Below, piece after piece: positions 3,581 to 63,336 of a DNA stretch of 64,000 nucleotides. The translations under genes and the position numbers were made by a program. Source of the stretch: Naegleria gruberi (Eukaryota); NCBI GenBank assembly GCA_000004985.1, contig GG738846.1; one strand, 5' to 3'. The notes below the pieces were generated by a model. It had not been told where the DNA came from. It saw only the letters and a list, made by a program, of their open reading frames with translations, and ran no database searches. Position 1 is the first letter of the stretch. Every line of letters starts with the position of its first letter.

Positions 3581-5874
3581 ATGTCTTTAACGCCCAACAA
3601 CAATAATTCCTCATTCACAACTGACAGTAACAATAACAATTGGTTCTTTCCCAATTCTGCTGCTGCCAGAAGCACTGATAACTTGGTCTTTGGACACTTT
3701 CTTAATCATCATCAGAGTCACATCACGATGGATGAGCAACAACAACAACAACAACAACAGCCCTTGACCTTCACACCCATCGACATCAACTCCTCCACTC
3801 ATCACATCACCACCACATCTAAGAACAACAAGACTGATACATCTCCTCCAACCCAAAAGTCCAAGAAGAAACAAAAGGTGGCCTGTGTGTATTGCAATAA
3901 GCTACACAGTACGTATTTAGAAATTGCTTAATATCTAAATTTTCCCTCAAATCTCAGAAAAATGTGACGGTGAGCCACCAAATACCTGCTCACGATGCTC
4001 AAAGAAATCCATTCCGTGTGTTGTAAGTAGTAGTACTGTCATGAAATTTACAATTTCTCAAGTATTTACCACCTCAAAAAAGAGGTCCCAAGTCAAAGAA
4101 GAGAAAGACCACCGATGGAGAGGATGATGACTATTACTCTACAGAACTAACTACAGAGGCTCAGTTATCAACTACTGCCAACCAGAATGAACAAATTCAA
4201 CAACTCCAGCTCCAACAAGCTCAACAACAATTCAATACTCCAGTGTACTTTAATCATGGTACATCCCAACAACGTTCACAACAACTGGAACATGTAACAA
4301 CAGCTCATCAATCTCAAATTGTAGGCTCAATAGATTTGGATACCTACATATCTGAATCTCTTTTCTCACCAATATCTAATAGGGATTCCAACCAGATCCA
4401 ACCTACTTATCAATCTAGTCCATTGACTGGTCTTCAGTTTGCTGTAAATGTACATACACGAACCCTAGTTGATCAATTTTTAGAGTAAGTATTCAACAAT
4501 CGTATGCATGTGCTTACCCAAAAAAGCTCTGTAACATGTCATTCCCTTGTTGAAAAGAACATGTTAGAAAATGCACTCACTAAGGCAGTAACTTATTCAT
4601 CTGAACCAACCGGGTATCAACTCTTGACAAATATTGTATGTGCGATGGGAGCCCAAAGATTAGAGGATAGAAAGAATTGCATTGATTTTTTCAACAGAGC
4701 AAGAAATCAAGCTAGTTATCTATTTGACATGCCTTCGAGAGAAACATCATGCGCCTTAAGCTTGATGGGCATTTATGCATGTTCAGAGGGTGAAAGAATC
4801 AAAGGTCACATATACAATAGAATTGCTCTCGACATGTCCACCAATATGTGTCGATATCAGGTTGAAAATGACAAGTATTTTCACTCGCTTTCAGCTCTTT
4901 CTTTGGCAACCAATTTTTCAAAATGGTTGTTCGAGTTGAACATTCTAAAGGTGGAAGAAAATTCCATCGATATTCTACTCAAACATGGAAATAATCCTAA
5001 TCATCCCCAAGTGCCACAGATTCGTGATCTTGTGAAATCAGTTAAATCATTTATCAACTCTCAGTATTGTATGAGGAAAATTGAAGATTTGGAAAATAGA
5101 ATTAATGATATGACTCTTGTAAAGGGAAGTGAGGAAATTTCATTTACAGCCATATTGGTTTATTACTTGCTGGACTCTAGAATTGCCTCACTATCAAACA
5201 ATAATCAAGTTGAGTACATTAAACTTTTGAGAAAATTGGAAACGATTGAAAAGTATGTTGAATCAGACAAGTTCAACAGGGATGATATTCAAAAGAATGT
5301 ACACAGATTCTGCCTCTACTCTCTAAGATCAGACATTCTAGTCAAGTGTGGACTCGACAAGATGGGATTACATTGTGCTACCAAAGCAACTGGATTGGCA
5401 GCAAAGCCAACATTCTGGAAATCAGCGCCAGACATTATTCTCTTCTTCCCTGTACTAATCAATGTTAACCTCAATGTCAATGATAGTAGCATGTCAATTG
5501 AAAATTATAAGTCACTCAAAATTATAAGTTCCAAGTTTGTGGTATTGAAGTATACACTTTTTGATATGATTAGTGCAATGAATAAGAGATCAGAATTTTC
5601 AGATCTTTTGGCAACTGAGAAACAACATGTTACCTCCAGTAGTGTTTCAAATGCTACAGGTACTTTACAATTTCCAAACGATATTCCAATGTGTGAGTCT
5701 TGTATTGTTGGTCAGGATGGTTGGGATGCCTCAGCACTGTTCGAAGATGCCAATAATGAATCCTGCTTCCAGACTACTGACATTACTGAAATGTTGCAAC
5801 AATTAGGCACAGCTCATGATCATGAATCATATCAAAACAAATTGGAATCCATTTGGCAATCCATTGCACAATAA
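3581..5874 (+). CDS. Zn(II)2Cys6 (GAL4-type) fungal transcription factor with an N-terminal poly-Q/N-rich region. It has four exons.
   Basis: Hand-reconstructed exons are about 3581..3908, 3958..4022, 4063..4485 and 4558..5874 (total 2133 nt = 711 codons). Introns at 3909..3957 (GTACGT..CAG) and 4023..4062 (GTAAGT..AAG) are well supported. The third, 4486..4557 (GTAAGT..AAG), is the only acceptor choice that keeps frame. Splicing restores a perfect CVYCNKLHKKCDGEPPNTCSRCSKKSIPC = Cx2Cx6Cx7Cx2Cx6C binuclear zinc cluster, followed by a basic linker (PQKRGPKSKKRK). Confidence 0.85.
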
Positions 5875-6141: not shown

Positions 6142-6214
6142 CGCCCACCGTGGGGGTCGAACCCACGACCACAAGGTTAAGAGCCTTGCGCTCTACCGAC
6201 TGAGCTAGACGGGC
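6142..6214 (-). tRNA. tRNA-Lys (anticodon CTT)
   Basis: The reverse complement reads GCCCGTCTAGCTCAGTCGGTAGAGCGCAAGGCTCTTAACCTTGTGGTCGTGGGTTCGACCCCCACGGTGGGCG. It shows a canonical cloverleaf with a 7-bp acceptor stem, GTTCGA T-loop and anticodon loop CT-CTT-AA. There is no encoded CCA, as expected for a eukaryote. Confidence 0.9.
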
Positions 6215-31306: not shown

Positions 31307-31830
31307 TATGTTGTGATCTATATTCCCGTAAAATTCTTTATATTTGTGTAATAATTTGTGTGTTGTGATGATGGAAGGAAATTAAATGAATTTTTTTAAA
31401 GATGAAAAAGTTATTAAATAAATTTAATCCAAATTACAATTGATTGTAAAAGGTAGAGTATTAATACTGCAGCAGTATTTCTAAATTATCGATTCGGCTT
31501 TGGGTTCTCTAACATCTATTATTACAAAATTATCAACAGTTGAATATTCTTTTCAATACTTTATCAGTCAAAAAACCCTTTTAGATACTTCAATGTTCTT
31601 CCTTAAAACATTGTAAAAACTCCATTTCAACTCTTCCAATGGATTGAGTTTTATATTGAGTTTTTTAAAAAAGAATCCGATAATCTACATTATCCTCCTC
31701 TTCATTTATCATTGTGTATTGTTGGCCAATAATTATTTGAGACAATACCAAACGTTAGAATTACTCTAATTCCCTCTACTGTAAATTCCAGTCCTCATTG
31801 ATTTTTTCCAAAAGCTTAAAAAACAAAACA

Positions 31831-33348
31831 ATGCTCGTTGACGATCACTCTTCTCCATCCGATCAAGAGAAGAATACCACCACAGATCAAGAAGAACAAC
31901 CACAACAACCACTGGTTATTAAAAAGATAGCCTGTATTGGTGCTGGTTATGTTGGTGGTCCTACAATGAGCGTTATTGCTACCAAGTGCCACGATATTCA
32001 AGTAATTATTTATGATATGAATCAACAACGTATTGATGCTTGGAATAGTGCCGAGTTGCCAATCTTTGAACCAGGCTTGGAAGAAATTGTCATGGAGAGA
32101 AGAGGAAAGAATTTGCACTTTACCACTGATTATCAACAAGTTGTTGATTCCGATGTTATATTTCTTTCAGTGAATACTCCAACAAAGTATTATGGTGTTG
32201 GTAAGGGAAGAGCAGCTGATTTGAAATATGTAGAATCTTGTGCAAGACAATTAAGGGATACTATTAAGAGTGGAAGAAAGATTATTGTGGAAAAATCAAC
32301 AGTACCTACTCGTACTTCTATTGCAGTGAAGAGAATTTTGGAAAGTGGTGAAAGCAAGGCTCGTTTTGATATCTTGTCCAATCCGGAATTTCTTGCAGAG
32401 GGTACTGCTATTAGTGATTTGCAAAATCCTGATAGAGTGTTGATTGGAGGTGAAGATGAAGAGTCCATTAGAGCTCTTTCATCTGTGTATGAAAGATGGG
32501 TTCCAAAGGAGAGAGTTATTACTACTAATTTGTGGTCAAGTGAATTGAGTAAGCTTGTCGCTAATTGCATGTTGGCTCAAAGAATCTCTTCAATGAATGC
32601 TATTTCTGCTCTCTGTGAAAAGACTGGTGCAGATATTCAACAAGTTTCCTTCGCAGTTGGAAAGGATACAAGAATTGGATCTAAATTCTTGCAAGCTAGT
32701 GTTGGATTTGGAGGAAGTTGTTTCCAAAAGGATATTTTGAATTTGGTCTATTTGGCTGATCATTACAATTTACCAGAAGTTGCCAAATATTTCTATGGAA
32801 TTATTGAAATTAACAATTTCCAAAGAGAAAGATTTGCTAAAAAGGTAATTCACAAATTGTTCAATACTGTCAGTGGTAAAAAGATTTGTGTTTTGGGATT
32901 TGCCTTCAAGAAGGACACTTCTGACACTCGTGAAACTTCAAGCATTTTTGTTTGCAAATCATTGTTGGAAGAACGTGCTAAAATTCACATCTATGATCCA
33001 AAAGTTACCAAGAAACAAATCATGTATGACATGAAGAGTATTATGAACGATTGCTATGATGGAGATTTCAGTGCCAAGATGGAATCATCCAGAGAAAGTG
33101 AACTTGTCGAATCGAACATTTTTGTGTCAACAGATCCATATGAAGCCATGTCTGATGCTCATGCTATTTTGGTTCTTACAGAATGGGATGAATTCAAGCA
33201 ATATGATTACAAACGAGTATTCGAAGGTATGAAGAAGCCAGCTTACTTGTTCGATGGTAGAAATATTTTGAACAGAAAAGATTTGGAAACTATTGGTTTT
33301 GATGTTTATCAAATCGGAAAACAAGAATCACATATGGCTGATTGGTAA
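31831..33348 (+). CDS. UGDH: UDP-glucose 6-dehydrogenase
   Basis: N-terminal NAD-binding Rossmann motif (IACIGAGYVGGPT), catalytic Cys region (GFGGSCFQKD) and near full-length collinearity with eukaryotic UGDH. The listed start at 31798 is TTG; the first ATG is MLVDDHS at 31831. Confidence 0.9.
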   Translation: MLVDDHSSPSDQEKNTTTDQEEQPQQPLVIKKIACIGAGYVGGPTMSVIATKCHDIQVIIYDMNQQRIDAWNSAELPIFEPGLEEIVMERRGKNLHFTTDYQQVVDSDVIFLSVNTPTKYYGVGKGRAADLKYVESCARQLRDTIKSGRKIIVEKSTVPTRTSIAVKRILESGESKARFDILSNPEFLAEGTAISDLQNPDRVLIGGEDEESIRALSSVYERWVPKERVITTNLWSSELSKLVANCMLAQRISSMNAISALCEKTGADIQQVSFAVGKDTRIGSKFLQASVGFGGSCFQKDILNLVYLADHYNLPEVAKYFYGIIEINNFQRERFAKKVIHKLFNTVSGKKICVLGFAFKKDTSDTRETSSIFVCKSLLEERAKIHIYDPKVTKKQIMYDMKSIMNDCYDGDFSAKMESSRESELVESNIFVSTDPYEAMSDAHAILVLTEWDEFKQYDYKRVFEGMKKPAYLFDGRNILNRKDLETIGFDVYQIGKQESHMADW

Positions 33349-33479: not shown

Positions 33480-33553
33480 GCAGCGATAGATCAGTTGGTT
33501 AGATCGTAAGCCTAACACGCTTAAGGTCGCGGGTTCAAGCCCCGCTCGCTGTA
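33480..33553 (+). tRNA. tRNA-Val (anticodon AAC)
   Basis: GCAGCGATAGATCAGTTGGTTAGATCGTAAGCCTAACACGCTTAAGGTCGCGGGTTCAAGCCCCGCTCGCTGTA folds as a cloverleaf. It has a 7-bp acceptor stem (one G-U pair), D-arm GATC/GATC, anticodon stem TAAGC/GCTTA with loop CT-AAC-AC, and T-arm GCGGG-TTCAAGC-CCCGC. Confidence 0.85.
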
Positions 33554-33800: not shown

Positions 33801-34970
33801 TTAAATTTCTTCTTCGTCACTATCATCACTATCACTGTCATCAGAATCTTCATCAGCAGTAAATGGGAATCTCAGAATAGCAGCAATACCTGTCATATTA
33901 TTGAGCTGAACACCGGCAACGTGCATGGCAGAACACATAAAGACCTTACCATTGGTCTTTTCAACATTTTCACATAATCTCACAAATGCTGTTCTTTCCT
34001 TGAGACCACTAGATCTAAATAATTCATCAGTAATCAACAATGTGTCAATAGCATCATGCTCAGCAGCTTTCATGACATGTTTAGGACCATAGACAGCCTT
34101 ATTTGGATCATTAGCCAAGACAGTGTAAAATTCCTCCAAGGCCTTAACTTCCTTGACAGCCTTTGTATCAGCCAATCTCTTCATGACAGATTCATCTTGT
34201 AAGACTTCTTTCAATGAGTGCAAGTGTCCTGTATTGGAGTGAACACGAACAAATTTATCCTTGTGAGCCAGTAATTCCTTATTTTCCTTTTGTTGACATG
34301 TCTTGACCATATATTCAAAAAATTGTTCATTAGTAAAACCAGGAGAGGCCAACAAGACACATTTCACAATTTCAAAATCAAAATGTTGTTGAATACCTCT
34401 CATAATGGCCTCAAAGAATTTACCCAAATCATTTTCGTGAGCTTCAGCAGAATATCTCTTCTTTGAAATACTCTTTTCAACTTTTTGTTTTTCCAATGTC
34501 ATATGTTGAGAAATGATACAAATATGGGCCTTTCCTTCACTCATAATTACGGCACCCAAATCAGCATTCTTAGTCATGTCTGTAGCTTCTTCAATTCGAT
34601 CCAAAAATACTTGATCCCATCTTCCTTTAGAAATAGACAATTTTCTATTCAATTCCAAATCAAATGTGTGATATTGACCAAGTTTAATGTACTTGTTTTC
34701 AGAAATGTTTTTTCCTGAAACACGGAAAGATCCACCATTCGGATCAAAGTCAATCTTTTCTACGGCAATAGTTATTGTAATTTTGACTTTTTCATTGGAG
34801 ACGAGACCAGTGTTAGTTTCCTTTGAAACTTTACGAATGGTGGTTGCTCTCACTCTATCGTTGATAGCAATAATATGATACATGTGCCAGAAATCTTCAT
34901 CAATTTCCGGTATTAATTCAACGTAGCCTTCTCCGTCCTTTGCCGCAATATCTTTCTTTACTAATTTCAT
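33801..34970 (-). CDS. DOM34: Pelota / Dom34 (no-go decay and ribosome rescue factor)
   Basis: 389 aa. MKLVKKDIAAKDGEGYVELIPEIDEDFWHMYHIIAINDRVRATTIRKV... is collinear with eRF1-like Pelota. It has an acidic D/E/S C-terminal tail. Confidence 0.9.
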   Translation of the reverse strand: MKLVKKDIAAKDGEGYVELIPEIDEDFWHMYHIIAINDRVRATTIRKVSKETNTGLVSNEKVKITITIAVEKIDFDPNGGSFRVSGKNISENKYIKLGQYHTFDLELNRKLSISKGRWDQVFLDRIEEATDMTKNADLGAVIMSEGKAHICIISQHMTLEKQKVEKSISKKRYSAEAHENDLGKFFEAIMRGIQQHFDFEIVKCVLLASPGFTNEQFFEYMVKTCQQKENKELLAHKDKFVRVHSNTGHLHSLKEVLQDESVMKRLADTKAVKEVKALEEFYTVLANDPNKAVYGPKHVMKAAEHDAIDTLLITDELFRSSGLKERTAFVRLCENVEKTNGKVFMCSAMHVAGVQLNNMTGIAAILRFPFTADEDSDDSDSDDSDEEEI

Positions 34971-45522: not shown

Positions 45523-45591
45523 AGCCCAACAATTGTTTCATTCTTTTTGAAATTCTTAATTAAGATCAGCAATTTTTCATCAAGATAAAAA

Positions 45592-45709
45592 GACTACAGC
45601 ACCACAGGTTCCCAAGTTGTCTCCAACCTCAGTACTGATGTGGCTCGACGATGCTTAACTTCTCAAATCGGACGGGATGAGGTGCATTCATCGTGATATG
45701 GCCGTAGCC
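45592..45709 (-). rRNA. 5S ribosomal RNA gene (copy 1)
   Basis: The reverse complement reads GGCTACGGCCATATCACGATGAATGCACCTCATCCCGTCCGATTTGAGAAGTTAAGCATCGTCGAGCCACATCAGTACTGAGGTTGGAGACAACTTGGGAACCTGTGGTGCTGTAGTC followed by TTTTT. It matches universal 5S blocks (CGGCCATAC, TCCCGTCCGAT, AAGTTAAGC, AGTACT, TGGGAAC.TG.TGCTGTAG), and the T-run serves as a Pol III terminator. Confidence 0.85.
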
Positions 45710-46577: not shown

Positions 46578-48101
46578 ATGCCTCAACATATTCCAAGCAA
46601 GTACAATAAATTCAACTCTCATCTCTCAGCCATTGATGATCTGGATGAATTTTATACGAGGAATCCATACGATATTTTTGATCGTTATTGTGAAGAGGAC
46701 AGCTTTATGGTTTTTAATAGAATAATTCCTTTCGCATTGATTCTCTATTCAGAAACTGAAAAGAAATTTATTTTCCAGAATAGTTTGATAGATGTGTGCC
46801 CTATGAATACATCTCCAAAGTATATACTTGCTCAATTTATGGAAAAATCTCGTTATAACAGATTTGGATTAATTAGGTTAGGTCAATTAGGGTTTAAGAT
46901 TGGGTATTCTTTCTTGAATCTTGTTTCTGAAAGAAAGGAAATATGTGATAGTTTATATTTGTACCACTCAACTGTTTTATCTATTCAGAAATACTCAAAA
47001 TCTAGTATTGAATTTTATGTTTCAGACAATAATAACTTTACAAATTTGAAAATTGCATTGTGTCAAGAAAATATTCTGAAAACAGAGATCATATACAAGA
47101 CGATAAAATTCTCCTCGATCCCTACTCGGTTATGGTCTAGTCAATCTTCGCAGGAATCAATAGCAGTTTCTCCTCAAATTATTAGAAATGGTCACAAAGA
47201 GAACATTTATTTAGACAACTCAATCTCTCTATTTCATTACAAAAATGATACCCAAAATATTGAATCTATTTGTTCACATGAATTTGAGCATCGTTATATT
47301 TTATTAGTCAATCAGAATAACAATGAAATTTTTATAATGAGCTTCCTTGACACTCTTGAATTTTACAAAATGGAACCATCACCATGTTATAACACATATG
47401 AAATGAAACCAGTTCATTTTGAAAACGTTGAGGAAATTAACGTAACAAACAAGGGTGTAACCTCATGTCCTTTAACAGGTAGCAAATATCTGGTATTTTT
47501 CTATAGGTACGATGATGATGATGAATCTAACATGAAAAATGTAACATATCAGGAGTTGTTTACTACTGATAAGGGGATGTGGATGCTCGTAGATTTAAAC
47601 TCAAACAGTGTCGAGAGGGTTTATCCAATTATTTATGATTTAGAGAAGGAAAAGCTACCTATAGTTTCATCTGATGGTTTCCAAACAGTTACAAAAAGAT
47701 TAACAAGAAGATGGATCCATATGCAAGATGGTGATTTGAATGGTGGGTGTACTGATTCTTTTTTAATCGATGGCACCAAACATTCTAATGGCCCCTTTAT
47801 CAACCATGACCCTATTTCTCCAATCCGATTCTCTGATGGATTTCTACCAGAATATTCATCCCTATTTGCATTTAGACCATTTCCATATAATTCTGAACTA
47901 TTTCAAGTCCATTTATCATTTCCTTTCTGTAAAGATTATTCAGACTATAAGTACACAAAGAAGGATTTAGACAAGTATGGATTTTCCTTTAGATTTTATT
48001 TCAAGTTTTATGAGGAAGCAACTTTTACTTTATTTGAAAGATTATTGGAATTTGAAAGAGAAGGTCAATTTTCAGATATCTCAATTTCAAGTGATAAATG
48101 A
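46578..48101 (+). CDS. Hypothetical 507-aa protein (orphan)
   Basis: ATG ORF with a good start context. No recognisable motif. The high-AT, N/K/F/Y-rich composition is typical of lineage-specific genes. Confidence 0.5.
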   Translation: MPQHIPSKYNKFNSHLSAIDDLDEFYTRNPYDIFDRYCEEDSFMVFNRIIPFALILYSETEKKFIFQNSLIDVCPMNTSPKYILAQFMEKSRYNRFGLIRLGQLGFKIGYSFLNLVSERKEICDSLYLYHSTVLSIQKYSKSSIEFYVSDNNNFTNLKIALCQENILKTEIIYKTIKFSSIPTRLWSSQSSQESIAVSPQIIRNGHKENIYLDNSISLFHYKNDTQNIESICSHEFEHRYILLVNQNNNEIFIMSFLDTLEFYKMEPSPCYNTYEMKPVHFENVEEINVTNKGVTSCPLTGSKYLVFFYRYDDDDESNMKNVTYQELFTTDKGMWMLVDLNSNSVERVYPIIYDLEKEKLPIVSSDGFQTVTKRLTRRWIHMQDGDLNGGCTDSFLIDGTKHSNGPFINHDPISPIRFSDGFLPEYSSLFAFRPFPYNSELFQVHLSFPFCKDYSDYKYTKKDLDKYGFSFRFYFKFYEEATFTLFERLLEFEREGQFSDISISSDK

Positions 48102-49970: not shown

Positions 49971-50876
49971 TTAAATTTCAAATATTAAATCTTGTCTAAA
50001 ATTATTTCCCTCAATTTGTGGATGTTTAGAAGAAAGGTATCCTAATTGATTTCCTGCCACAATAATTCCATTTTCAGTTTGTTTCACAATCGAATAGTGA
50101 GTATGTCCATAAATCCACATGATAATTGGTGATTTGATTAAAGAACTCAAATCACTTGCAAATGCATGATTGTAATGTTGAACTTTCAAATCTTTCGTGT
50201 GCTCATATTGAGGAGCTCCAACTCCACTCATCATTGGTGCATGATGGGTACAGACAATCACTTTCTTGTTTTTGTGTTTTTCCAATTCATTACTCAACCA
50301 TTTCACATCCTCTTGGAAAAATCTGACAGTGTCAGTGACATGTAAAGTTCTGGATTTTCCATTTTCCATAATTGAAATTAATCTATAGTCATTCAACGAC
50401 TTGAATATATTTGAGAAGGATGTTGTGAAATTGTGAAATTTTGAAATTTTGACACCTACATTCTGTACCACCTGAAGTGCTTGATCTGGAACATGACTCC
50501 ACAGAGTACATCCCAGGAACACAACTTGCTCTCCATCACCATTAATTTCTACAGAATTTTGATAGAGAAAATGAACATTTGCGAATAAATTGGCCAACTT
50601 TTTCATTCGATCCACAGATGACCAATAATCATTTCCATAGAATTCATGATTGCCGGCCACAATAATCACATCCCGATACTTTGCAGAGCAGTACTGCAAA
50701 AAATCCGAATAGCAATCGAGAAATGGATTTGCAATATCACCAGCAAGAATCAGCACGTGACCAATTTCCTTTCCACTCAATATAAAATTACCAAACTTTT
50801 CCTTGAATTTCAAATTGAAATCATCAAAGGAAGGAAAATGTTCAATGTGCAGATCGCTCATAAATTGAATTTTCAT
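49971..50876 (-). CDS. Calcineurin-like metallophosphoesterase
   Basis: 301 aa with the ordered metallophosphatase motifs SDLH (GDxHG-like), GDIAN (GDxxDRG-like), GNHE, then CTHHAP and GHTH. Confidence 0.8.
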   Translation of the reverse strand: MKIQFMSDLHIEHFPSFDDFNLKFKEKFGNFILSGKEIGHVLILAGDIANPFLDCYSDFLQYCSAKYRDVIIVAGNHEFYGNDYWSSVDRMKKLANLFANVHFLYQNSVEINGDGEQVVFLGCTLWSHVPDQALQVVQNVGVKISKFHNFTTSFSNIFKSLNDYRLISIMENGKSRTLHVTDTVRFFQEDVKWLSNELEKHKNKKVIVCTHHAPMMSGVGAPQYEHTKDLKVQHYNHAFASDLSSLIKSPIIMWIYGHTHYSIVKQTENGIIVAGNQLGYLSSKHPQIEGNNFRQDLIFEI

Positions 50877-50985
50877 TTTTTTTAAGATAAGATTCGTTAT
50901 TATTGCAATAAAAGATTTTTTTTAAGATAATTCAATTTTACAAAAAATCAAATGGTTCAAATACCTTTCGAATAAGAAGGAAAAA

Positions 50986-51103
50986 GACTACAGCACCACA
51001 GGTTCCCAAGTTGTCTCCAACCTCAGTACTGATGTAGCTCGACGATGCTTAACTTCTCAAATCGGACGGGATGAGGTGCATTCATCGTGATATGGCCGTA
51101 GCC
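50986..51103 (-). rRNA. 5S ribosomal RNA gene (copy 2)
   Basis: Identical to copy 1 except for one transition (CGAGCTACATCAG versus CGAGCCACATCAG). It shares the upstream flank TTCATTACCTTAATTTC and the downstream A/T-run. It lies in direct orientation 5.39 kb from copy 1. Confidence 0.85.
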
Positions 51104-51271
51104 ATTCATTACCTTAATTTCTGAAATATAAATCAATTCAACCTTCACCAATTCTCTCTATTTGCAAATCTCGAAACTATCACAAGTTGATTTCTTCAAA
51201 TTTTCTCTATTTACTTACTATTTAAAATAATAATAAATCAATTCTTCCTATATTATGAATTTTTTGAAAAA

Positions 51272-52213
51272 ATGTCATCAAGTGAAGAAGGCCTAAATCA
51301 TTGTTGGGCAATTAAATTCGGAGGAAGTTCAATCACTCACAAGGGAGAATTACATTCACTAAATCATGAAAATATTAATTGGTTGGTGGAACAAGTTCGG
51401 AATTTGTATCGAAAGAATTATAAATTTATCATCATTCATGGTAGGTAATTTTGATAAATTGGAATATATATATTGAGAGAGGCAACACGACAATTAGGAG
51501 CTGGATGTTTTGGACATTTTGAATGGAGCCAAGTCAAATCAATGAAACAAGATTTTGCCAATAATTTGGAAAATATTAAAATTAAAGTTGTGGAAACGAG
51601 ATTCTATGTCAAGACATTGAATATGGAAATTGTAAAGAGATTGGTGGAGAATGGAGTGCCAGCTCTTACTGTTTCTCCGATGGAATTTGGAGATTTATAC
51701 TCGAGTGAATTTAAGGGGAAAATTCAAAAATTATTAAATGATGGATATATACCAGTAATGCATGGTGATTTAAATTTTAATGTGAAAGAAGAATTCCCAT
51801 TCTCAATAACCTCAGGAGATACTATATTGGACGTTTTATCAGAGCAATCCATATCTCATTCTAGTATTTTCATTTCAGATGTTTTTGGAGCTTTTCTTAA
51901 TTGCCCAAATGATGAATCAAAGAATTGTGAGTCTGTTGCTATGAAAAATGGACTCATTAAAGCAATACAGATACAAGAGAATGGAGAAAAAGTAATGGAA
52001 TTATATGAAAGTTCAGCAACAGAAAAGAATGGGGAAATTACAACTCAAGTTGTACATAGCCATGATGTTACAGGAGGATTTGAGAAGAAATTGACTTGTG
52101 CATTTGATATAGCCAAGAGAAGTCAAAATGTCTTCATCCTCAAAGCCAACACTCCAAACCTTTTCAATATTGTGGAAGGAAGAGAATTTGTTGGGACAAA
52201 AATATTCAAATAG
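51272..52213 (+). CDS. Amino-acid-kinase family protein, isopentenyl phosphate kinase (IPK)-like. Two exons.
   Basis: Exon 1 is about 51272..51440 (MSSSEEGLNHCWAIKFGGSSITHKGELHSLNHENINWLVEQVRNLYRKNYKFIIIH-G). A 57-nt intron (GTAGGT...TTAG) follows. Exon 2 is about 51498..52213. Splicing reconstitutes IIIHGAGCFGH, the HGGGxFGH signature that follows the KxGGS P-loop-like motif in IPK and fosfomycin kinase. The in-frame stop TAA at 51446 lies inside the intron. Confidence 0.7.
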
Positions 52214-52477
52214 TTTTTGTTCGCAAGCAGTTCATTTAAATTTATTGAAAGCTGCGGACTAACAGCTAATCCTAGGTGATTAATAAATAGCTGGTTGAAT
52301 ATCACTCGCATAAGTGAAGATTCATTGGAAGCAAGCTCAAAGAAAGAAAAGAAAAGTCCTATTTACTTTTCAGTATTAACATTTCGTGTTAATACTTCCA
52401 AATAGATAGGACACTCTTTTTTTTTGTTTGAACTTAAAAAGAGTGTTTGGTTTAAGGATTGAGTGATTGCAATTTGT

Positions 52478-53500
52478 TTACACCAAATTAGTGAAGGAGA
52501 AATTATTTAACCAGGTGTTATCTTCACAGGTAGCAGTGTAAGAAATAGCAGGGGAAGTATTTTGAGGGGAGGATGGTTGTTTTCTTTGGAAGAAATGGAT
52601 ATTTGGAGTATGTTTTTCGAAAGGAGAGGTGGAAATTCTAGCGATTTGTTTTGGTGGAGATCTTTCAGGAGTCTTTGGAGCAATTGGTTGTTGGACTGGT
52701 TGTTGTCTAACTTGCTTGTTGGTCTTCTTGAATGTGTTTACCCATTGTTGAAGATCGGCAAGGAAAGGTTTAACAGGCCAAAAATTGCCTCTTGCTTGCT
52801 TCCTGATAATTTCACCAATATTAAACCAGGAAATTTGAGCAATTTCCTTTCTGGTTTGGGTGAGGAACTTGGTAGATGAAGGAATGTTTGGAGCAATAAA
52901 AAGTTTAACTAATTGTTCGTTGAATTGTCCTTCAAGGAATTGGTCTTTCAAAATATATTGAGAGCAATCAAAACCAACTTCTTCTCTACCTTCTCTGACA
53001 GCACAAGCGACTTCTTCTTCATTCTTGTTAATCTTACCTCTTGGGAAAGACCAAGACTTGGAGTTCCATCCCTTGACTAGGAGAATATTTTCCAAGGTTT
53101 CATCAATTAAAATAACACCGCATACAGGTACGCTAGTCTTGTAATTGATAAAGGATTGAATGTGTTCATCAACAGTTTTTTGGTATGGTTGGAGGAAAGG
53201 GCAGGCAAGGAAAACCTTATCGGCGAATTGGTGGAGGTTGAATTTAGGAAGGGAAGGATTTTGTTCTCTATAAAAATCCAAATAGAACCAAAAGGCTTCT
53301 TCAATTTGGAAGAAGAGACGGTCAAAGTTTTCGTGTTCTTCTTCAGGACAATTGAGAATAAATTTAACTACTAGTTCATCCATAATTTCATCGAGAGATT
53401 TGACTCTAGTAGGGGTTTCAACTTTTCTAGCATCTTCCTTCGAATTTCTTCTTGGGGATTTCTTAGAAGGGGACTTTCTAGCATTATTCATTCCTGACAT
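52478..53500 (-). CDS. DCP2: mRNA-decapping enzyme subunit 2 (Dcp2): Box A plus Nudix hydrolase
   Basis: 340 aa. The N-terminal Box A region LDEIMDELVVKFILNCPEEEHENFDRLFFQIEEAFWFYLDFY matches Dcp2. The Nudix box is GKINKNEEEVACAVREGREEVGFD (GxxxxxExxxxxxxREuxEExGu). The C-terminus is Q/P-rich. Confidence 0.85.
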   Translation of the reverse strand: MSGMNNARKSPSKKSPRRNSKEDARKVETPTRVKSLDEIMDELVVKFILNCPEEEHENFDRLFFQIEEAFWFYLDFYREQNPSLPKFNLHQFADKVFLACPFLQPYQKTVDEHIQSFINYKTSVPVCGVILIDETLENILLVKGWNSKSWSFPRGKINKNEEEVACAVREGREEVGFDCSQYILKDQFLEGQFNEQLVKLFIAPNIPSSTKFLTQTRKEIAQISWFNIGEIIRKQARGNFWPVKPFLADLQQWVNTFKKTNKQVRQQPVQQPIAPKTPERSPPKQIARISTSPFEKHTPNIHFFQRKQPSSPQNTSPAISYTATCEDNTWLNNFSFTNLV

Positions 53501-54980
53501 GATGATGATGGTTTGTTTAGAGTTAGTATAGACAATGAGAGTTTGTGTAGTTTTGGTGGGAAAACTATGAAATGATTAAAAACGGGGTTATACAACGTAT
53601 AGACCAATGTAGAGGTGTGTGGTGGTAGGTAGTTTTAGGGAAAAACCTGTAGCGAGATGAGAATGGCGGTTTAAAAAAACGAGCGCTGAAAAATACTATT
53701 AACTAGCTCTAGCTTATTGTTCATATAGTGAACGTATGTTGAGAGAATTTTTTTTTGTTGTTTTCGGTTGAGTGCAAAACAACGCTAATTTTAAATCTTT
53801 GCGTTGCGAAATCTCCTGCTGCTATGAAACAACGCCTCGCAACGTGTGTTGTTGTGTTTGTCGGTTGTTGTATCTTTGAATCTCGCATACAACTTTGCTT
53901 GGTGTTGATGTGAGTCATATTTGGGTCATGGATTCTCTTGCTCCTCTTTCGATAATTTGATAAGACGCAATTTTGAAGAGAATGTCCCAATGAGAGACAA
54001 ATCGTTGCCTAAAGATCAATGGCAAGTTATTATTAGCAGAGAAGAGTGACAAATTCAATGATGAACATCACATCCAGGAAGGAACATAAGAAAACTATTT
54101 TTGAGCTTCTAATTGTAATTTCGGAATGCACGGAAGACATGTACAGTTGTTGTCATTACCTCCTAAAACCATATTTCGATATTGAACATCAATCAACTTT
54201 ATTATACATCAATGATAGTTTAATTGATAAATACAATCATTCAACCTCAATTGTTGGAAGAGAGGTTTACATCATGATTGGTCAATCATTATTAGTTACA
54301 AAATTTACCTTATGATGATTTTGTAATACACCTTATCATGTTATTTACAATCTTCAAATTTTCGGTTGGAAGGTACCATTTCTTCCTTATACAATCAGCT
54401 GAAGGTAGATTTGGAGATTAATGCTTCGCGGTTGAGAGAGTTGTTCAAAATTACTAATAAGGAACTTTCAAATATACAATGCTACGAATGGGTTGATCAA
54501 GAACTAATAGCAGTTTTAGTAAAAAATTTGAATAGGTGAGAGAGAATATCACAACATTGACAGTGAAATCCAAAAGTTCCCTTTTGTTGATATTCAAACT
54601 ATAATGGGCGTGAAACAATTTATAACCATTGAAGTAGTTGGAGGAGAGGATTCAATCATGACTGAGATCACTCTTGAGAACAATGGAAAGGCCTCTATTG
54701 TTCATTCATGCTTATCTATAAATTAAGAATTGTGCTTATTTTGATCATTACGTTGTAAATGAATTACTACTATATTAAATATTGGTTAAAAACAGATGTT
54801 GAACTGCATAGAATAGAAGGGTGACTGTTGTAAGGAAGAATAATCGACTGTTTAGTAAACCTATCATTAAGGACATTCGAGTACAGTATTTTCCTGTAAA
54901 AATTGTTTTATTTCTTCTGGGATTGTTCACATTTGCATCTTACTTGTTGTGATTCTTATCCTTTGATGGTTTAAGAAGCA

Positions 54981-56577: not shown

Positions 56578-59400
56578 ATGTCAAAGCCTATTCGATTCAC
56601 ACAAACACGAAGATCTTTCATCACTTCCAACAACAACAATGATGACTGGCTTGCACCATTGCTTGCCCAAACAAACATGCCCGAAGGCAACTTTAAAAGA
56701 CCATTGGCAGTGGGTGGTACTTTTACGAATGGTGATAAAACATATAAAATCATAGAGATTTTTGTTGAAGGAGGTCAAGCAAAAACATTCAAATGTTTAG
56801 ACAGGTACAACAATATTGTGGTGGTAAAATTGCTTCCTTGTGAGAATGTGTTATCGTATGGAGATTGTATAGAATTCAACTTGTCACTTTCTAATGAAGC
56901 AAAGAGAACATTTTCACGATATATTATCTATCAGATGGATGGATTTACAGTAACAATCAATAATTCCGAAAATAATATTGATGAACAATATATTTGTGTT
57001 GTTACAGAGTATTGTAAAGAAGGCTATTTGAATGTTATAGGTCATTCTTTTGACATAACCATCTCACTTGTATTACAGTTTATTTTCCAGAGTGGAATAG
57101 GTTTAGATAAATTACATAATGTTGGTTTTGTTCACATGGATTTGAAACCAGAGAATTTATTCATAAGAGAATTCACACAACACAAGATTCTCTTGGTTGT
57201 TGGAGATTTAGGAATAGCCAGAAAGTTCCAAAACCAAGAAGAACAAGAAGATGGTGAGTACTACTGGGGTACCGAAGGCTACAGAGATCCAATTTATAGG
57301 AAATGTGGTACATTTTCTTCTTCATGTGATGTTTGGGGCATTGGTGTAACTTTTTTGGAGTTTATTTCAAAGAAAAGGATTAGTACTGATTTTGAGACAA
57401 TGTCAGAAATAGAGAGACACTGGTATATTGAATTATTATTTGCTGAAATATTATTAACCAAACCTAGAGAACAAGAAGAATGGTCTATCATCAAATATAT
57501 TGTTAAAGGAATGTTAACAGAAAACATTGACAAAAGATTAACCATTTTGGATATCTTTAGAACTATTTTTACAGAAGCAGTTAATGAAATAGATTTTGCA
57601 AGCAATTTCCAAAGATTGAAAGATGTTTTTAGAATGAATGAATCTGTGGTTATTTCATGTCTACATGAAAATGGTATGAATTTAAAATATGTTGATGATG
57701 GATATTTAGATAGAAGAGATATTATAGAAATAGCTGTCTCTCAAAATGGTCTCTCTTATGAATATATCAAATCAAATCACAATCAATTCATGTATGACAA
57801 AAAAATAATTCAAAAAGCTTACCAAAGTAACCCAGCTGTTCTTAAGTTCATTCCAGAACATTTCCACAATACTGAATATTTGGGAAATGATATGCGACTA
57901 AAAAATTCAGACAATCAAAGTATTAGCATAATTGATAGTAATGATATAAGTATCATGATGCACAAAGTTAAAATAGATGGAATGTACTTAATTTCAGCTT
58001 CAAGTGAATTAAGAAATACCTATGAACTTGTTAAGGAAAGTGTTAAATCTAGAGGGATATCATTACAATATGCCTCTGATGATCTTAAAAAGAAGTACGA
58101 AATTTGCGACATTGCTATTTCTCAGAATGGGTTGGCTTTGGAGTTTGTTGATGAAAGTATAATAGATGACAATTTGGTGCTTAAGGCTGTGAAAAATAAT
58201 GGGATGGCGTTACAGTTTGTATCTGATATTTGGAAAACCGAAGAAATTGCCCGAACCGCCATTCGTTCCAAGGGAAAAGCTATTCAGTTCATACCAAAAG
58301 ATTTGTTAGATCAATATGCAGTGATTTTATTTAATGAAAATCTCGAAAGCATGTTCGTATGTTTGTTTGTGCAAGGATGGGAATATGTTGAAAAGTGTAT
58401 TCGAAATTATGGCGGTAAGGTAGACTATTTAGAAGGTATATTACTAAGCAAATCAGAACTGAGTACCATTGTATTAGCTAGTGAACAAGGTGATTCAAAT
58501 GCACAATTTAATCTTGCAGTTATGTATGAAAATGGTGAAGGAATATTACAAGATTATTCAAAAGCATTTGAATGGTTTTTAAAAAGTGCTGAACAAGGTG
58601 ATTCAAATGCACAATTTAATCTTGCAGTTATGTATGAAAATGGTGAAGGAATAGTACAAGATTATTCAAAAGCATTTGAATGGTTTTTAAAAAGTGCTGA
58701 ACAAGGTTATTCAAATGCACAATTTAATCTTGCATTGATGTATGATAATGGTATTGGAATATTACAAGATTATTCAAAAGCATTTGAATGGTATTTAAAA
58801 AGTGCTAAACAAGGTGATTCAAGAGCACAATTTAATCTTGCATTGATGTATGAAAATGGCAAAGGAGTAGAACAAGATTATTCAAAAGCATTTGAATGGT
58901 TTTTAAAAAGTGCTAAACAAGGTGATTCAAATGCACAATTTAATCTTGCATTGATGTATGAAAATGGCATTGGAATATTACAAGATTATTCAAAAGCATT
59001 TGAATGGTATTTAAAAAGTGCTGGACAAGGTTATTCAAGAGCACAATTTAATCTTGCATTGATGTATGAAAATGGTATTGGAATATTACAAGATTATTCA
59101 AAAGCATTTGAATGGTATTTAAAAAGTGCTGAACAAGGTTATTCAAATGCACAATTTAATCTTGCATTGATGTATGAAAATGGTGAAGGAATATTACAAG
59201 ATTATTCAAAAGCATTTGAATGGTATTTAAAAAGTGCTGAACAAGGTGATTCAAGAGCACAATTTAAGCTTGCAGTTATGTATTATAATGGTGAAGGAAT
59301 ATTACAAGATTATTCAAAAGCATTTGAATGGTTTTTAAAAAGTGCTGAACAAGGTAATTCAAGTGCACAATTCAAAATTAAGGCTTTAAAGATGGAATAA
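56578..59400 (+). CDS. Protein kinase (TKL-like, atypical catalytic motifs) with a central ~40-aa repeat region and a C-terminal array of 8-9 Sel1 (TPR-like) repeats
   Basis: 940-aa single exon. Kinase core: VVVKLL (beta3 Lys), HMDLKPENLF (catalytic loop, non-RD), VGDLGIA (DLG instead of DFG), GTEGYRDP. The middle region has about 6 repeats of the form NG(M/L)(A/S)L(Q/E)(F/Y)(V/A)(S/D)D...AV(K/S)(N/Q)NG. The C-terminus is 9x (S)NAQFNLA(V/L)MYENGEGILQDYSKAFEWFLKSAEQGD = Sel1 repeats. Confidence 0.9.
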   Translation: MSKPIRFTQTRRSFITSNNNNDDWLAPLLAQTNMPEGNFKRPLAVGGTFTNGDKTYKIIEIFVEGGQAKTFKCLDRYNNIVVVKLLPCENVLSYGDCIEFNLSLSNEAKRTFSRYIIYQMDGFTVTINNSENNIDEQYICVVTEYCKEGYLNVIGHSFDITISLVLQFIFQSGIGLDKLHNVGFVHMDLKPENLFIREFTQHKILLVVGDLGIARKFQNQEEQEDGEYYWGTEGYRDPIYRKCGTFSSSCDVWGIGVTFLEFISKKRISTDFETMSEIERHWYIELLFAEILLTKPREQEEWSIIKYIVKGMLTENIDKRLTILDIFRTIFTEAVNEIDFASNFQRLKDVFRMNESVVISCLHENGMNLKYVDDGYLDRRDIIEIAVSQNGLSYEYIKSNHNQFMYDKKIIQKAYQSNPAVLKFIPEHFHNTEYLGNDMRLKNSDNQSISIIDSNDISIMMHKVKIDGMYLISASSELRNTYELVKESVKSRGISLQYASDDLKKKYEICDIAISQNGLALEFVDESIIDDNLVLKAVKNNGMALQFVSDIWKTEEIARTAIRSKGKAIQFIPKDLLDQYAVILFNENLESMFVCLFVQGWEYVEKCIRNYGGKVDYLEGILLSKSELSTIVLASEQGDSNAQFNLAVMYENGEGILQDYSKAFEWFLKSAEQGDSNAQFNLAVMYENGEGIVQDYSKAFEWFLKSAEQGYSNAQFNLALMYDNGIGILQDYSKAFEWYLKSAKQGDSRAQFNLALMYENGKGVEQDYSKAFEWFLKSAKQGDSNAQFNLALMYENGIGILQDYSKAFEWYLKSAGQGYSRAQFNLALMYENGIGILQDYSKAFEWYLKSAEQGYSNAQFNLALMYENGEGILQDYSKAFEWYLKSAEQGDSRAQFKLAVMYYNGEGILQDYSKAFEWFLKSAEQGNSSAQFKIKALKME
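58483..59397 (+). repeat. Tandem array of about 8.5 near-identical 108-bp units encoding the Sel1 repeats
   Basis: The unit GAACAAGGTGATTCAAATGCACAATTTAATCTTGCAGTTATGTATGAAAATGGTGAAGGAATATTACAAGATTATTCAAAAGCATTTGAATGGTTTTTAAAAAGTGCT recurs head-to-tail with only a few substitutions per copy (for example GAT/TAT, GCAGTT/GCATTG, GAAGGA/ATTGGA). Confidence 0.8.
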
Positions 59401-59448: not shown

Positions 59449-62400
59449 TTAAATAAAGAATGGATTGTATGGATTTTGTAATAAATTTGGCAAGTTTTCA
59501 GATTGTGCTTTGAGAATTAAATTTGATAAGTAATTGTAATATTCACTTGGGAATGATTGGCTCAATTGTTTCATTAGGTATTTACTGGTATAGTAGAGAA
59601 TGGTTGGGTTGAATTTCTCTTGTTGTAATAAATTCTTGAAAAAGGTAATTCCACCAATAGATTCCAATACATTAACAGACTTGTTACATTTTTCAATTAT
59701 TAAAATTAGTAATACAGAACAAATAGATGACAATTGGCTTGATTGTTGTTGATTTGAATGCAAACTTTCGAATAAATAGTACAATATACTAATACTGATA
59801 TCTTTCAATAAATAAAAAGGTATTGTCAAGTATCCATTCAAAAACATTTCACACATATCCAAATTAAATAATTCATTAGATGATTTCAATGAAGACTGAA
59901 GAGAATTAACAATGGAAATAAAATCAAACACAATATAAAATGATTTGATGAGAATGTGTAAATTAGTCTCTTTTCTGTTAACAATACATTCTAATAGAGA
60001 TTCATTAATATTCTTAATCATAATCTTGACTAGATCGCCATGTGTTGTACATTTTGATTTGAATAATTGAATCTTCTTTTCCAATAAATTCAAATAGAGA
60101 ATTCTTACTTTAGGATTTTCATGATTAATCATATCTGTCATTAATTGATTAAGTTTCAATTTCAAATCTTGATAATATTTTGGTGTAAGATTATCATAAT
60201 CTTCAAAGAATTTGATAAAATTGAATAATACCAATTCACCTTGTCTTAAATCATCATCACTTTCCATAAATGTTGATGATGAATTAGTTGTTGTTGAATT
60301 TACACTACTACTAGCCCCATTAAAGGAACTATTGAGACCACTACCAGTAGTAGCATTGCCACCGCCACCACCAATACCAGAACCACTCATGTTTGGTCCA
60401 TTGGAAGTAGTATTAGTAGCACCTGTACAATTAAAGATTAAATCTTTAATAATTTTTTCAAATAAATTAATATTACTCATGTTCATATTATTTAAAATAT
60501 TTGTTGTGTAATTTTTAAATTCAGAGTTCAAGTATTTACAAGATAATTTTTGTAATCCAATAATAAACTTCATTAAATTATCAATTTTGAAAAAGAATGT
60601 TTCGGATTTTACAAAGTTGGTGTATAAGAATTTTGTGAATAATTTTACAAAAGTATAATGTTTGTCAACGTTTGGAATAAATTTGAATAGTAAATGTAAA
60701 TATAAAGGTAAATTTGATTGATCAAATATTAAAAATAAATAATCTTTTTGGAATGACTCCATATCTGGTAATTCCAAATTAATGATATAATCAAATATGA
60801 TTAAAAATAAATTATACTTGCTATTTAAATTTAACAAGTGATTATATTCTGTATAAAGTTGAATAATGGAATATATTGAGTTTGGTAATTTTTTAAGCAA
60901 ATTATTTTGATGATTAATTTGAAATGTTAATAGAGAAATTAAAATATCATAACAATTATATTCCTCATTAAAATTACTCAGATTAAATAAAATCAAATCG
61001 AATACAATTCGAACATCCAATTGATCAATTAATAATTGAGGATTTAACTCAATTATAATGTTATTATTCAAATTAATATTTGTGTTATAAATAATAAAAT
61101 GATGATACAGGAAATAAATTAAAATCTCACTAATCTTGGTCTTGATAAATGAATCGTTATGGTTCATTGTAAAATAAACCAGCGACATGTCGCAAAACTT
61201 GGAAAACAAATCAGAAATTACAAATTCAATATTTGGAATATTCTGATAGAGATTGAATAAATTAGTAACATAATAATAAATATTGAATATCAGTTTGAAA
61301 ACATAATAAATATTGGTATTATCATTGGTATCTAACATTTCCAAAAAGAAACTATTCAATTGCTTCATAGTTAATTTAGATTGATCATTTCCATAAATAG
61401 TGTGTGAAATCATTACTGTAAAGAATAGGCAGGCATCATTTAACTTGATTTCATCGCCATTAGAATTTATAATTTGATTCAAAATAGTATTGAACTGATC
61501 ATAATTTTCAATAATAGATTGAATATACAAGTCATTGTTATTCTTGTATTCATAATATTGTTCAATGTATTGTGATAGATTTGGAAGCAAAATTTCATCA
61601 ATATTATTCAAAACAAATTCTTCATGTTGAATTTCACTCTTGATACTTTGAATTTGGTGTTTAATAGTATCCATATTTTCAATATTTAAAATCTTGTTAC
61701 TTTTATCAATTTCTGCTTGTTTATCTTCAAATTTAGTAAATTTTCTAAATTGACTTCCAAAATAGATGAAATCCATGATAGTTTGATCAATTTCATTCTT
61801 TGAATCACCTCCAATGGATGCACCTCCTAATGATGTGAATGATGATGATTTTTCATTTAATGAGTAGTTATTATTTAATACATCATTATTTAATAATCTA
61901 TTCTTGTATAAATAATATTCAAAAACTCTTGAAGTTAATCCTGAAATTCTCTTATCATAATTTAACATGTTTAATATGAGAGTTTGATTTTTCTGTAAAA
62001 TTTTAATTAAATGCCTATGTAAATATTTAATACAGAATTGTAATTGTGTTTGTAAATTGGCATTTAAATGTTTTTTTGATAAGCCATCTTTACAATAGTA
62101 ATAAATATTTTTATATTGATCCAATAATGAATCATCCCTCTTGAATGTTGTAAGAAAGGTCTTTAATAAATATAAACAAATTAATAAAATTGATACAGAA
62201 TCTTCATTCTCTTGCATTCTTTTCAAAATCTCCTTATAAATGTAAACTTTACTGTTTTTATCATTGTGATATTTGAAAAGTAATTTGAGTGAATATGAAT
62301 TTTTAAAGTAAATATTACTATGTTTCGTATTGTTATTGTTATTCAATGCATTATCATATAAAACATATTCATTATTCAATAATTGACTATTATTACTTAT

Positions 62401-63336
62401 TAGAGTACTAGCACTTCCAATAAATGATTGAAATGTATTTAAATTTCCACTATATGAATTAATAGAAGTTGAATTATTTCCTCCAATAAAACTTCCACCA
62501 AGTGTCGTATTACTTGTCAAATTTGATGAGCTCGAATCAGAGCCACTCATCGATGTTAAGTGATTATAAATAATATTCATTGATGAATGATGTTGATTAT
62601 TGAGAACAATATTATCCTTTTTAATTATACTTGTCAATTCCTCAACTAGATCATGAATTATATTTTGAATGAATAAACTTTTAGGAGCATTCTTTGTTTG
62701 ATCCTTTACATAGGTAAGTGATGATCTCAAATTATTGGAAGTATGAGTAATGCCATTCAGGAAGGTTGGATCCATCATGAGTAACATGATATCATCGGAA
62801 TCTCCTCCATTTGCAGAGGAAGTAGGTGCACTTCCTCCACTCAAATAATTATTACTTGGAGTACCAGCAGATGATGTAAAATTGAGACTATTTCTTGGAG
62901 TGGTCACAGAGGAAGGTGATGAGAATAGATTTGTTGTAGGTGATCCAAAGTTGGTTGATGATGTAATCACTCGAGGAGATTGATTTGCATTATTATTAGT
63001 ATTGGAAGGTGAATTGAATTTTGTATATTGTATTGGAGAATTGGGTTGTTGGAAGGGAATTGAGGAGGCTGTTCGGTGGTGTAAATAGTGTTGCATCTCA
63101 TTGTAGCCTGAGAGTGATCCATTCTCAAAGGAGTGTCTTCGGTTAGGATCATTGTGATGACTATTTAAATATTGTGATGAGGAAGCTGCAGTTGAGGATG
63201 GAGGTGGTGGTGCATTTTGAGTTGATGTTGGTTGGCCATTATTTGTAGTGGGTGTTCCAAAAGCAACACTCGAATGAGTAGAGGCAGATGAAGAGGATGG
63301 TGTGCCAACAAGTCCTCCTTGTGGATGATGAGACAT
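59449..63336 (-). CDS. Large (1295 aa) hypothetical protein. It has an S/T/P/N-rich N-terminus and a very long N/I/L/Y-rich helical body, possibly an alpha-solenoid.
   Basis: Uninterrupted ATG-initiated 3.9-kb ORF, which is itself strong evidence of coding in about 75%-AT DNA. No family recognised. There is an internal Gly/Ser/Asn-rich linker (GSGIGGGGGNATTGSG). Confidence 0.55.
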   Translation of the reverse strand: MSHHPQGGLVGTPSSSSASTHSSVAFGTPTTNNGQPTSTQNAPPPPSSTAASSSQYLNSHHNDPNRRHSFENGSLSGYNEMQHYLHHRTASSIPFQQPNSPIQYTKFNSPSNTNNNANQSPRVITSSTNFGSPTTNLFSSPSSVTTPRNSLNFTSSAGTPSNNYLSGGSAPTSSANGGDSDDIMLLMMDPTFLNGITHTSNNLRSSLTYVKDQTKNAPKSLFIQNIIHDLVEELTSIIKKDNIVLNNQHHSSMNIIYNHLTSMSGSDSSSSNLTSNTTLGGSFIGGNNSTSINSYSGNLNTFQSFIGSASTLISNNSQLLNNEYVLYDNALNNNNNTKHSNIYFKNSYSLKLLFKYHNDKNSKVYIYKEILKRMQENEDSVSILLICLYLLKTFLTTFKRDDSLLDQYKNIYYYCKDGLSKKHLNANLQTQLQFCIKYLHRHLIKILQKNQTLILNMLNYDKRISGLTSRVFEYYLYKNRLLNNDVLNNNYSLNEKSSSFTSLGGASIGGDSKNEIDQTIMDFIYFGSQFRKFTKFEDKQAEIDKSNKILNIENMDTIKHQIQSIKSEIQHEEFVLNNIDEILLPNLSQYIEQYYEYKNNNDLYIQSIIENYDQFNTILNQIINSNGDEIKLNDACLFFTVMISHTIYGNDQSKLTMKQLNSFFLEMLDTNDNTNIYYVFKLIFNIYYYVTNLFNLYQNIPNIEFVISDLFSKFCDMSLVYFTMNHNDSFIKTKISEILIYFLYHHFIIYNTNINLNNNIIIELNPQLLIDQLDVRIVFDLILFNLSNFNEEYNCYDILISLLTFQINHQNNLLKKLPNSIYSIIQLYTEYNHLLNLNSKYNLFLIIFDYIINLELPDMESFQKDYLFLIFDQSNLPLYLHLLFKFIPNVDKHYTFVKLFTKFLYTNFVKSETFFFKIDNLMKFIIGLQKLSCKYLNSEFKNYTTNILNNMNMSNINLFEKIIKDLIFNCTGATNTTSNGPNMSGSGIGGGGGNATTGSGLNSSFNGASSSVNSTTTNSSSTFMESDDDLRQGELVLFNFIKFFEDYDNLTPKYYQDLKLKLNQLMTDMINHENPKVRILYLNLLEKKIQLFKSKCTTHGDLVKIMIKNINESLLECIVNRKETNLHILIKSFYIVFDFISIVNSLQSSLKSSNELFNLDMCEMFLNGYLTIPFYLLKDISISILYYLFESLHSNQQQSSQLSSICSVLLILIIEKCNKSVNVLESIGGITFFKNLLQQEKFNPTILYYTSKYLMKQLSQSFPSEYYNYLSNLILKAQSENLPNLLQNPYNPFFI

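Follow-up and report, generated by a model that had tools for sequence, protein, structure and literature searches.

The window analysed here, a stretch of 64,000 nucleotides of Naegleria gruberi DNA, contains on its + strand what is in all likelihood a two-exon nuclear gene for a full-length member of the isopentenyl phosphate kinase (IPK) family, 294 amino acids long and with the amino-acid-kinase fold. Judged from the sequence, we put the probability of this reading at roughly 0.85. The N. gruberi gene adds one more, unremarkable member to a known family, and its only novelty is that the reference annotation cuts off the catalytic N-terminus. What follows from it is a correction of the gene model, in which the reference protein XP_002682615.1 is to be extended by 71 N-terminal residues and the gene by one intron.

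Structure of the gene and its intron

The start codon of the gene is the ATG at 51272. Exon 1 (51272..51440, + strand, 169 nt) encodes Met1 to His56 and provides the first base of Gly57. It carries the motif K15-F-G17-G18-S-S (51314-51331, +) as well as K24. A predicted spliceosomal intron of 57 nt follows (51441..51497, +; GTAGGT...TTAG, phase 1). Exon 2 (51498..52213, +, 716 nt including the TAG stop codon) finishes Gly57 and encodes A58 to K294, with H63 (51515-51517), P142, G146, the DVTGG motif of residues 246-250 (52064-52078), K254 and G289-T290 on the same strand. The spliced coding sequence amounts to 885 nt, i.e. 294 amino acids and a stop codon. The intron splits codon 57 as G|GA and thereby interrupts the HGAGCFGH signature formed by residues 56-63 (51437..51517, +). 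After splicing, the junction reads ...KFIIIHGAGCFGHFEW..., corresponding to ...KFIIIH-G-AGCFGHFEW..., which rebuilds IIIHGAGCFGH. An earlier note on this DNA had proposed these exon and intron coordinates, the motif KFGGSS in exon 1 and a splice junction that restores the His-containing signature. All of them are as it described, with KFGGSS located at residues 15-20 of the 294-aa protein.

Read without splicing, the frame continues as IIIHGR* and ends at the TAA at 51446-51448. The length of the intron is divisible by 3, yet it contains in-frame stops. Use of a second candidate donor at 51445 would leave the frame broken. Removal of the 57-nt GT-AG intron would join exon 1 to exon 2. Exon 1 would supply the N-terminal KxGG phosphate-binding loop and K24, and exon 2 the remainder of the HGAGxFGH loop, including the His63 that is specific to IPKs, together with PVxHGD, SGD, DVTGG and K254. 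The splice would thus bring back all residues reported to be conserved in IPKs.

Four independent lines of comparative evidence lend indirect support to the putative intron. In three relatives the IPK orthologue is a single uninterrupted ORF, namely in N. lovaniensis (contig L003, 4001-4966), in a N. fowleri-type contig (L004, 4001-4987) and in a third, heterolobosean-like contig (L005, 1685-2575). The intron therefore appears to be specific to the N. gruberi lineage, the motif being contiguous elsewhere. Exon 1 alone matches an intronless orthologue (P0003) with E = 2e-15, and the full 294-aa protein aligns with the IPK of N. lovaniensis at E = 2e-89, ungapped at residues 56/57; both values are far better than chance would give. 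A comparison between strains was made with a N. gruberi-like strain that shares about 98-99% identity with the window and comes from metagenome ERR1078381/PRJEB11402 (contigs L001 and L002). In this near-identical strain (L002) the intron carries 6 substitutions and a 2-nt deletion within 57 nt (about 14%) while retaining GT and AG; the exons differ at 6 of 169 positions in exon 1 and 7 of 716 in exon 2 (1-4%). Eight of the 13 coding differences are synonymous, and codons 8-56 of exon 1 hold four synonymous changes and no non-synonymous one. Since a 2-nt indel would be intolerable in coding sequence, the deletion supports an intron at 51441-51497. Finally, the conserved GAGCFGHFEWSQVKS lies 5' of Met72, the first in-frame ATG in exon 2, and the frame is open from there back to the acceptor. 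The ORF holding exon 2 opens only with a TTG directly after a stop codon. Because GAGCFGHFEWSQVKS has no ATG of its own, an upstream exon is needed.

The current reference model (XP_002682615.1 / EFC49871.1, NAEGRDRAFT_61783, "predicted protein", 223 aa; 51542..52213, +) corresponds with exact identity to residues 72-294 of the spliced model. It begins at Met72 (ATG at 51542) and is therefore truncated, being without K15, G17, G18, K24, G57 and H63. If this annotation were right, the locus would encode a 223-aa product from Met72, or the intron would be retained with a stop at the TAA at 51446, leaving a dead fragment or a decaying pseudogene. The 223-aa model is the sole model in NCBI, UniProt and EukProt, and the spliced product turned up in none of the collections searched: the exact 294-aa sequence had no match in a collection of 15 billion proteins, it was absent among the IPK homologues found by protein search, and a 30-mer across the spliced junction gave 0 matches in JGI metagenome contigs. 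A literature search on N. gruberi intron statistics returned nothing usable. A truncated product or pseudogene is, however, hard to reconcile with a frame that stays open 5' of Met72 and encodes a conserved segment lacking an ATG, with an exon 1 conserved in intronless orthologues, with strain differences in codons 8-56 that are synonymous only, and with the intactness of every invariant residue, several of which a protein starting at Met72 would lose. We consider the truncated reading very unlikely and retain the two-exon gene.

Family membership and conserved residues

By profile, sequence and fold searches, the predicted protein is a member of the IPK family. The Pfam model AA_kinase (PF00696), which the earlier note had put forward as a check, matches residues 13-271 with 82 bits and bears out the amino-acid-kinase fold. 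The IPK equivalog model of NCBIfam (NF040647, IPPK_Arch) gives 141 bits (E = 3.9e-41), which exceeds its curated cut-off of 120. In contrast, the models for argB, FomA, proB and [LysW]-aminoadipate kinase reach 15-21 bits against cut-offs of 151-550. For the curated models of FomA, glutamate 5-kinase and N-acetylglutamate kinase the scores are only 16-21 bits (FomA model NF000338, 20.5 vs 550; proB, 16.6 vs 186; argB, 21.2 vs 151.3), which places the protein outside these three families. A sequence search of the PDB yielded seven distinct significant matches (1.4e-21 to 3e-11), all seven of them IPKs, with FomA at E = 0.074. An AlphaFold2 model of the 294-aa protein, built from a 14-sequence alignment, has a pLDDT of 88.8 and a pTM of 0.87. 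When this model was compared with the PDB by Foldseek, the best 33 matches were all IPK structures, and TM-scores normalised to the IPK structures were 0.72-0.84. Glutamate 5-kinase, FomA and N-acetylglutamate kinase, which have the superfamily fold PF00696 in common with the N. gruberi protein, are weaker fold matches and appear from rank 34. A profile search retrieved 1074 proteins at E <= 1e-10, and all named ones among the 120 matches listed are called isopentenyl phosphate kinase. Profiles, PDB matches and Foldseek thus agree with the original assignment to IPK and set the protein apart from glutamate-5, acetylglutamate and aspartate kinases and from FomA. From its family, the enzyme would be expected to transfer the gamma-phosphate of ATP to isopentenyl monophosphate (IP), giving IPP, and probably to act on DMAP too.

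The hallmark of IPKs is a catalytic His (H60 in M. jannaschii) that is unconserved in other amino-acid-kinase families (Dellas et al. 2013, PMC3857490) and that is present in the N. gruberi protein as H63. Table 2 of the same paper gives 11 invariant residues (K6, G8, G9, K15, G54, H60, P140, G144, D213, T215 and G216) and three near-invariant ones (K221, G253 and T254), all in M. jannaschii numbering. Their counterparts are present in N. gruberi without exception (14/14), as K15, G17, G18, K24, G57, H63, P142, G146, D246, T248, G249, K254, G289 and T290. The first 12 were mapped by pairwise alignment to structure 3k4o, with a query whose N-terminus had been swapped for that of M. jannaschii from the paper's supplement and which is the real window sequence from residue 49 onward; the positions of G253 and T254 fall past the printed end of that alignment, and their assignment is based solely on the multiple alignment and the C-terminal GT motif. 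G57, whose codon is split by the intron, corresponds to the invariant G54, and all sequences in the 14-sequence alignment share G57, G59, G62 and H63. The catalytic His and Lys, which the earlier note had named as a check, were found through these two alignments. The protein has all the catalytic and binding residues of IPKs, and its IPK fold is predicted with confidence. A lineage-specific insertion covers approximately residues 195-243, and residues 231-250 are modelled at a pLDDT of about 50-58.

Among known kinases, archaeal IPK structures are the best matches in both sequence and fold (M. jannaschii 3k4o, M. thermautotrophicus 3ll9, T. acidophilum 3lkk/3ll5, Ca. Methanomethylophilus alvus 7lnt and Thermococcus paralvinellae 8u0k). 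Common to archaeal and Naegleria IPKs are the fold of the amino-acid kinases, a KxGG loop, a HGxGxFGH loop that holds the catalytic His, and the elements PVxHGD, SGD and DVTGG...K. Nevertheless, identity to the characterised archaeal enzymes is only about 19-24%, the Naegleria protein exceeds them by about 30-45 residues and has extra sequence inserted after the P193 region and before DVTGG, and unlike its archaeal counterparts the Naegleria gene is eukaryotic and intron-bearing. Eukaryotic IPKs (those of Arabidopsis, Trichoplax and Branchiostoma, and those predicted in Lottia and dictyostelids) are 28-31% identical to the N. gruberi protein. They share with it a sporadic distribution, the presence of mevalonate-pathway genes alongside and identical conserved residues. 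Those of Arabidopsis, Trichoplax and Branchiostoma have reportedly been characterised by Dellas et al. 2013 and Henry et al. 2015. The orthologues of N. fowleri (XP_044561994.1) and N. lovaniensis (C9374_001769) show 45-48% identity over near full length and have the lineage-specific insertion in common with N. gruberi. Their genes are uninterrupted, whereas the N. gruberi gene has the 57-nt intron inside the signature and a database model of 223 aa.

Membership in the family leaves some room for a kinase acting on another substrate, such as longer prenyl monophosphates, another alkyl phosphate or a phosphonate. The substrate range of the family is compatible with this, as fosfomycin is the substrate of FomA, and PDB titles name DMAP and other alkyl monophosphates as accepted by natural or engineered IPKs; "phosphorylation of an IP-like substrate" is allowed for in PMC3857490, and the insertion is specific to Naegleria. 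Against it, the score exceeds the cut-off of the curated IPK equivalog, that of FomA is negligible, the IPK-specific His and the remaining conserved residues are all there, and the seven homologues whose activity Dellas et al. measured (PMC3857490), three from archaea, one from a bacterium and three from eukaryotes, all proved to be specific IPKs. A different substrate is thus distinctly unlikely, and a genuine IPK is the reading that we prefer.

Host, evolutionary placement and the earlier absence call

The earlier note took the sequence to be fungal and held that a fungal copy would be notable. The host is Naegleria gruberi, a heterolobosean amoeba, and this remark is therefore inapplicable. 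A neighbouring ORF in the window, for UDP-glucose 6-dehydrogenase (31798-33348), is 100% identical to the NCBI entry "predicted protein [Naegleria gruberi]", with the next matches in Willaertia (77%) and Acrasis (67%). Residues 72-294 of the kinase are likewise identical to N. gruberi XP_002682615.1, and its nearest relatives are those of N. lovaniensis and N. fowleri. For a fungal IPK speak only the AT-rich sequence (GC content of the window, 33%) and the short intron, neither of which is specific to fungi, and we give that origin practically no chance.

A neighbour-joining tree, a simple method, was calculated from 24 sequences and 268 columns, with plants and fungi unsampled. In this tree, the four heterolobosean IPKs form a clade (100/100 bootstraps). 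The clade joins Lottia (an animal), Tieghemostelium (a dictyostelid) and one unnamed sequence (98/100) and stands apart from the named archaeal and bacterial IPKs. The tree argues for a place of the N. gruberi protein within the eukaryotic IPK group and not for a recent transfer. Within the limits of its sampling and method, it offers no support for recent horizontal acquisition from archaea or bacteria.

In Table 1 of PMC3857490, the column "Species with no IPK" includes Naegleria gruberi, and neither the IPK alignment nor the extra-sequence supplements of that paper contain a Naegleria entry. The IPK screen of that study demanded the His signature, which is cut off in the truncated model; we infer that the truncation probably accounts for the listing of N. 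gruberi as a species without IPK. UniProt has automatically named the orthologues of N. fowleri and N. lovaniensis, whose sequences came later, "Isopentenyl phosphate kinase", so that an IPK in the genus was already in the databases. In the open-access literature searched, Dellas et al. 2013 (PMC3857490) is the only paper naming both IPK and Naegleria. With the corrected gene model, N. gruberi, and with it the Heterolobosea, would count among the scattered eukaryotic groups that have IPK and no longer among those without it. This slightly favours an IPK in early eukaryotes with many later losses. More generally, surveys that score presence or absence by signature residues fail where gene models are truncated.

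Physiological role and genomic neighbourhood

The earlier note pointed out that IPK completes the alternative mevalonate route. The decarboxylase homologue of N. gruberi speaks against such a role here. The eukaryotic MDD alignment of PMC3857490 (supplementary file 7) includes a N. gruberi homologue of 386 aa, and in that published alignment it keeps the classical YWGK (Tyr18/Lys21) and SSAS motifs. At position 21, phosphomevalonate decarboxylases (MPDs) carry Leu, Met or Tyr (PMC3857490), and the features by which the MPD type was judged are the lack of Lys at position 21, an Arg at position 27 and Ala or Thr substitutions. These motifs make the N. gruberi MDD homologue look more like a classical enzyme than an MPD, and a classical mevalonate route is therefore probably present. 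In this respect N. gruberi differs from most archaea, which are without a classical-type MDD (PMC3857490). At the position of S. epidermidis Ile27, the N. gruberi homologue apparently has a His (YWGKEN--EAEHIPLN), although the count may be one column off; this position is Ile or Asn in the MDDs of other eukaryotes and Arg in phosphomevalonate decarboxylases.

In plants, IPK re-phosphorylates IP that Nudix hydrolases make from IPP and thereby tunes sterol and terpenoid output (PMC6779861). Given the classical-type MDD homologue, our best guess is that the N. gruberi enzyme would likewise serve re-phosphorylation of IP, i.e. salvage and homeostasis of the IP/IPP pool beside the classical mevalonate pathway, which we regard as likelier than an alternative route. 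A search for literature on the Naegleria mevalonate pathway found nothing usable, and eukaryotic IPK is not treated in Hoshino & Gaucher 2018. Should the MDD homologue act as a phosphomevalonate decarboxylase, IPK would be the last step of a true alternative route (MVAP to IP to IPP). The retention of IPK in at least four heterolobosean lineages or strains would fit such a role, as would the apparent His at the Ile27 position, where MPDs have Arg, if the residue is not miscounted by a column. Nevertheless, Tyr18, Lys21 and the SSAS serines are those typical of classical MDDs, and plant IPK coexists with a full classical pathway and serves IP recycling (PMC6779861). A true alternative route is accordingly unlikely, and salvage is the role that we favour.

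It is improbable, if conceivable, that Naegleria, including the pathogen N. fowleri, needs IPK to provide a substantial part of its IPP. Such dependence could arise through a cryptic phosphomevalonate decarboxylase activity of the MDD homologue or through heavy recycling of IP. Mammals are not known to have an IPK. If the dependence were true, the enzyme would be a selective target in the sterol and isoprenoid metabolism of the brain-eating amoeba, and Naegleria would be the first non-plant eukaryote in which the IP branch matters physiologically. The practical significance is modest unless IPK is important in N. fowleri.

No isoprenoid genes were found near the IPK locus. Upstream lie a metallophosphoesterase gene (49971-50876, -) and a divergent 5S rRNA gene (50985-51103, -), the latter 169 nt 5' of the IPK start codon. 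Downstream, 265 nt from the IPK stop and convergent with it, follows a Nudix gene of the Dcp2 decapping type (DCP2 box A and NUDIX domains; 52478-53500, -). A functional link between IPK and this adjacent Nudix gene was considered and set aside, as the neighbour is a Dcp2-type mRNA decapping enzyme and the adjacency is missing in N. lovaniensis, where the IPK neighbourhood is unconserved. The tail-to-tail arrangement is probably a coincidence.

The 5S rRNA gene next to IPK is one of two dispersed copies (45591-45709, -, and 50985-51103, -), 5394 nt apart. Both lie inside a 151-nt repeat that is 97% identical between the copies and comprises the gene and about 28 nt of its 5' flank. The metagenome contigs L001 and L002 (ERR1078381, PRJEB11402) match the window at 51187-54363. 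Compared with the window, the near-identical strain has an 82-nt gap in the spacer between 5S and IPK (51108-51189); its 5S end fits the other 5S copy better, and that end may be an assembly chimera. No paper was found in a literature search for PRJEB11402.

Elsewhere in the window, three ORFs at 59449-63336 (-), 46578-48101 (+) and 4504-5874 (+), of 1295, 507 and 456 aa, had no Pfam match at E <= 0.001. An ORF of 940 aa (56578-59400, +) combines a protein kinase domain with five DUF4116 repeats and eight Sel1 repeats, the latter nearly identical among themselves. A tRNA-Val(AAC) gene (33480-33553, +) adjoins the gene for a 389-aa protein with eRF1 domains 1-3 (33801-34970, -), which is possibly Pelota/Dom34-like. 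A tRNA-Lys(CTT) gene is located at 6142-6214 (-).
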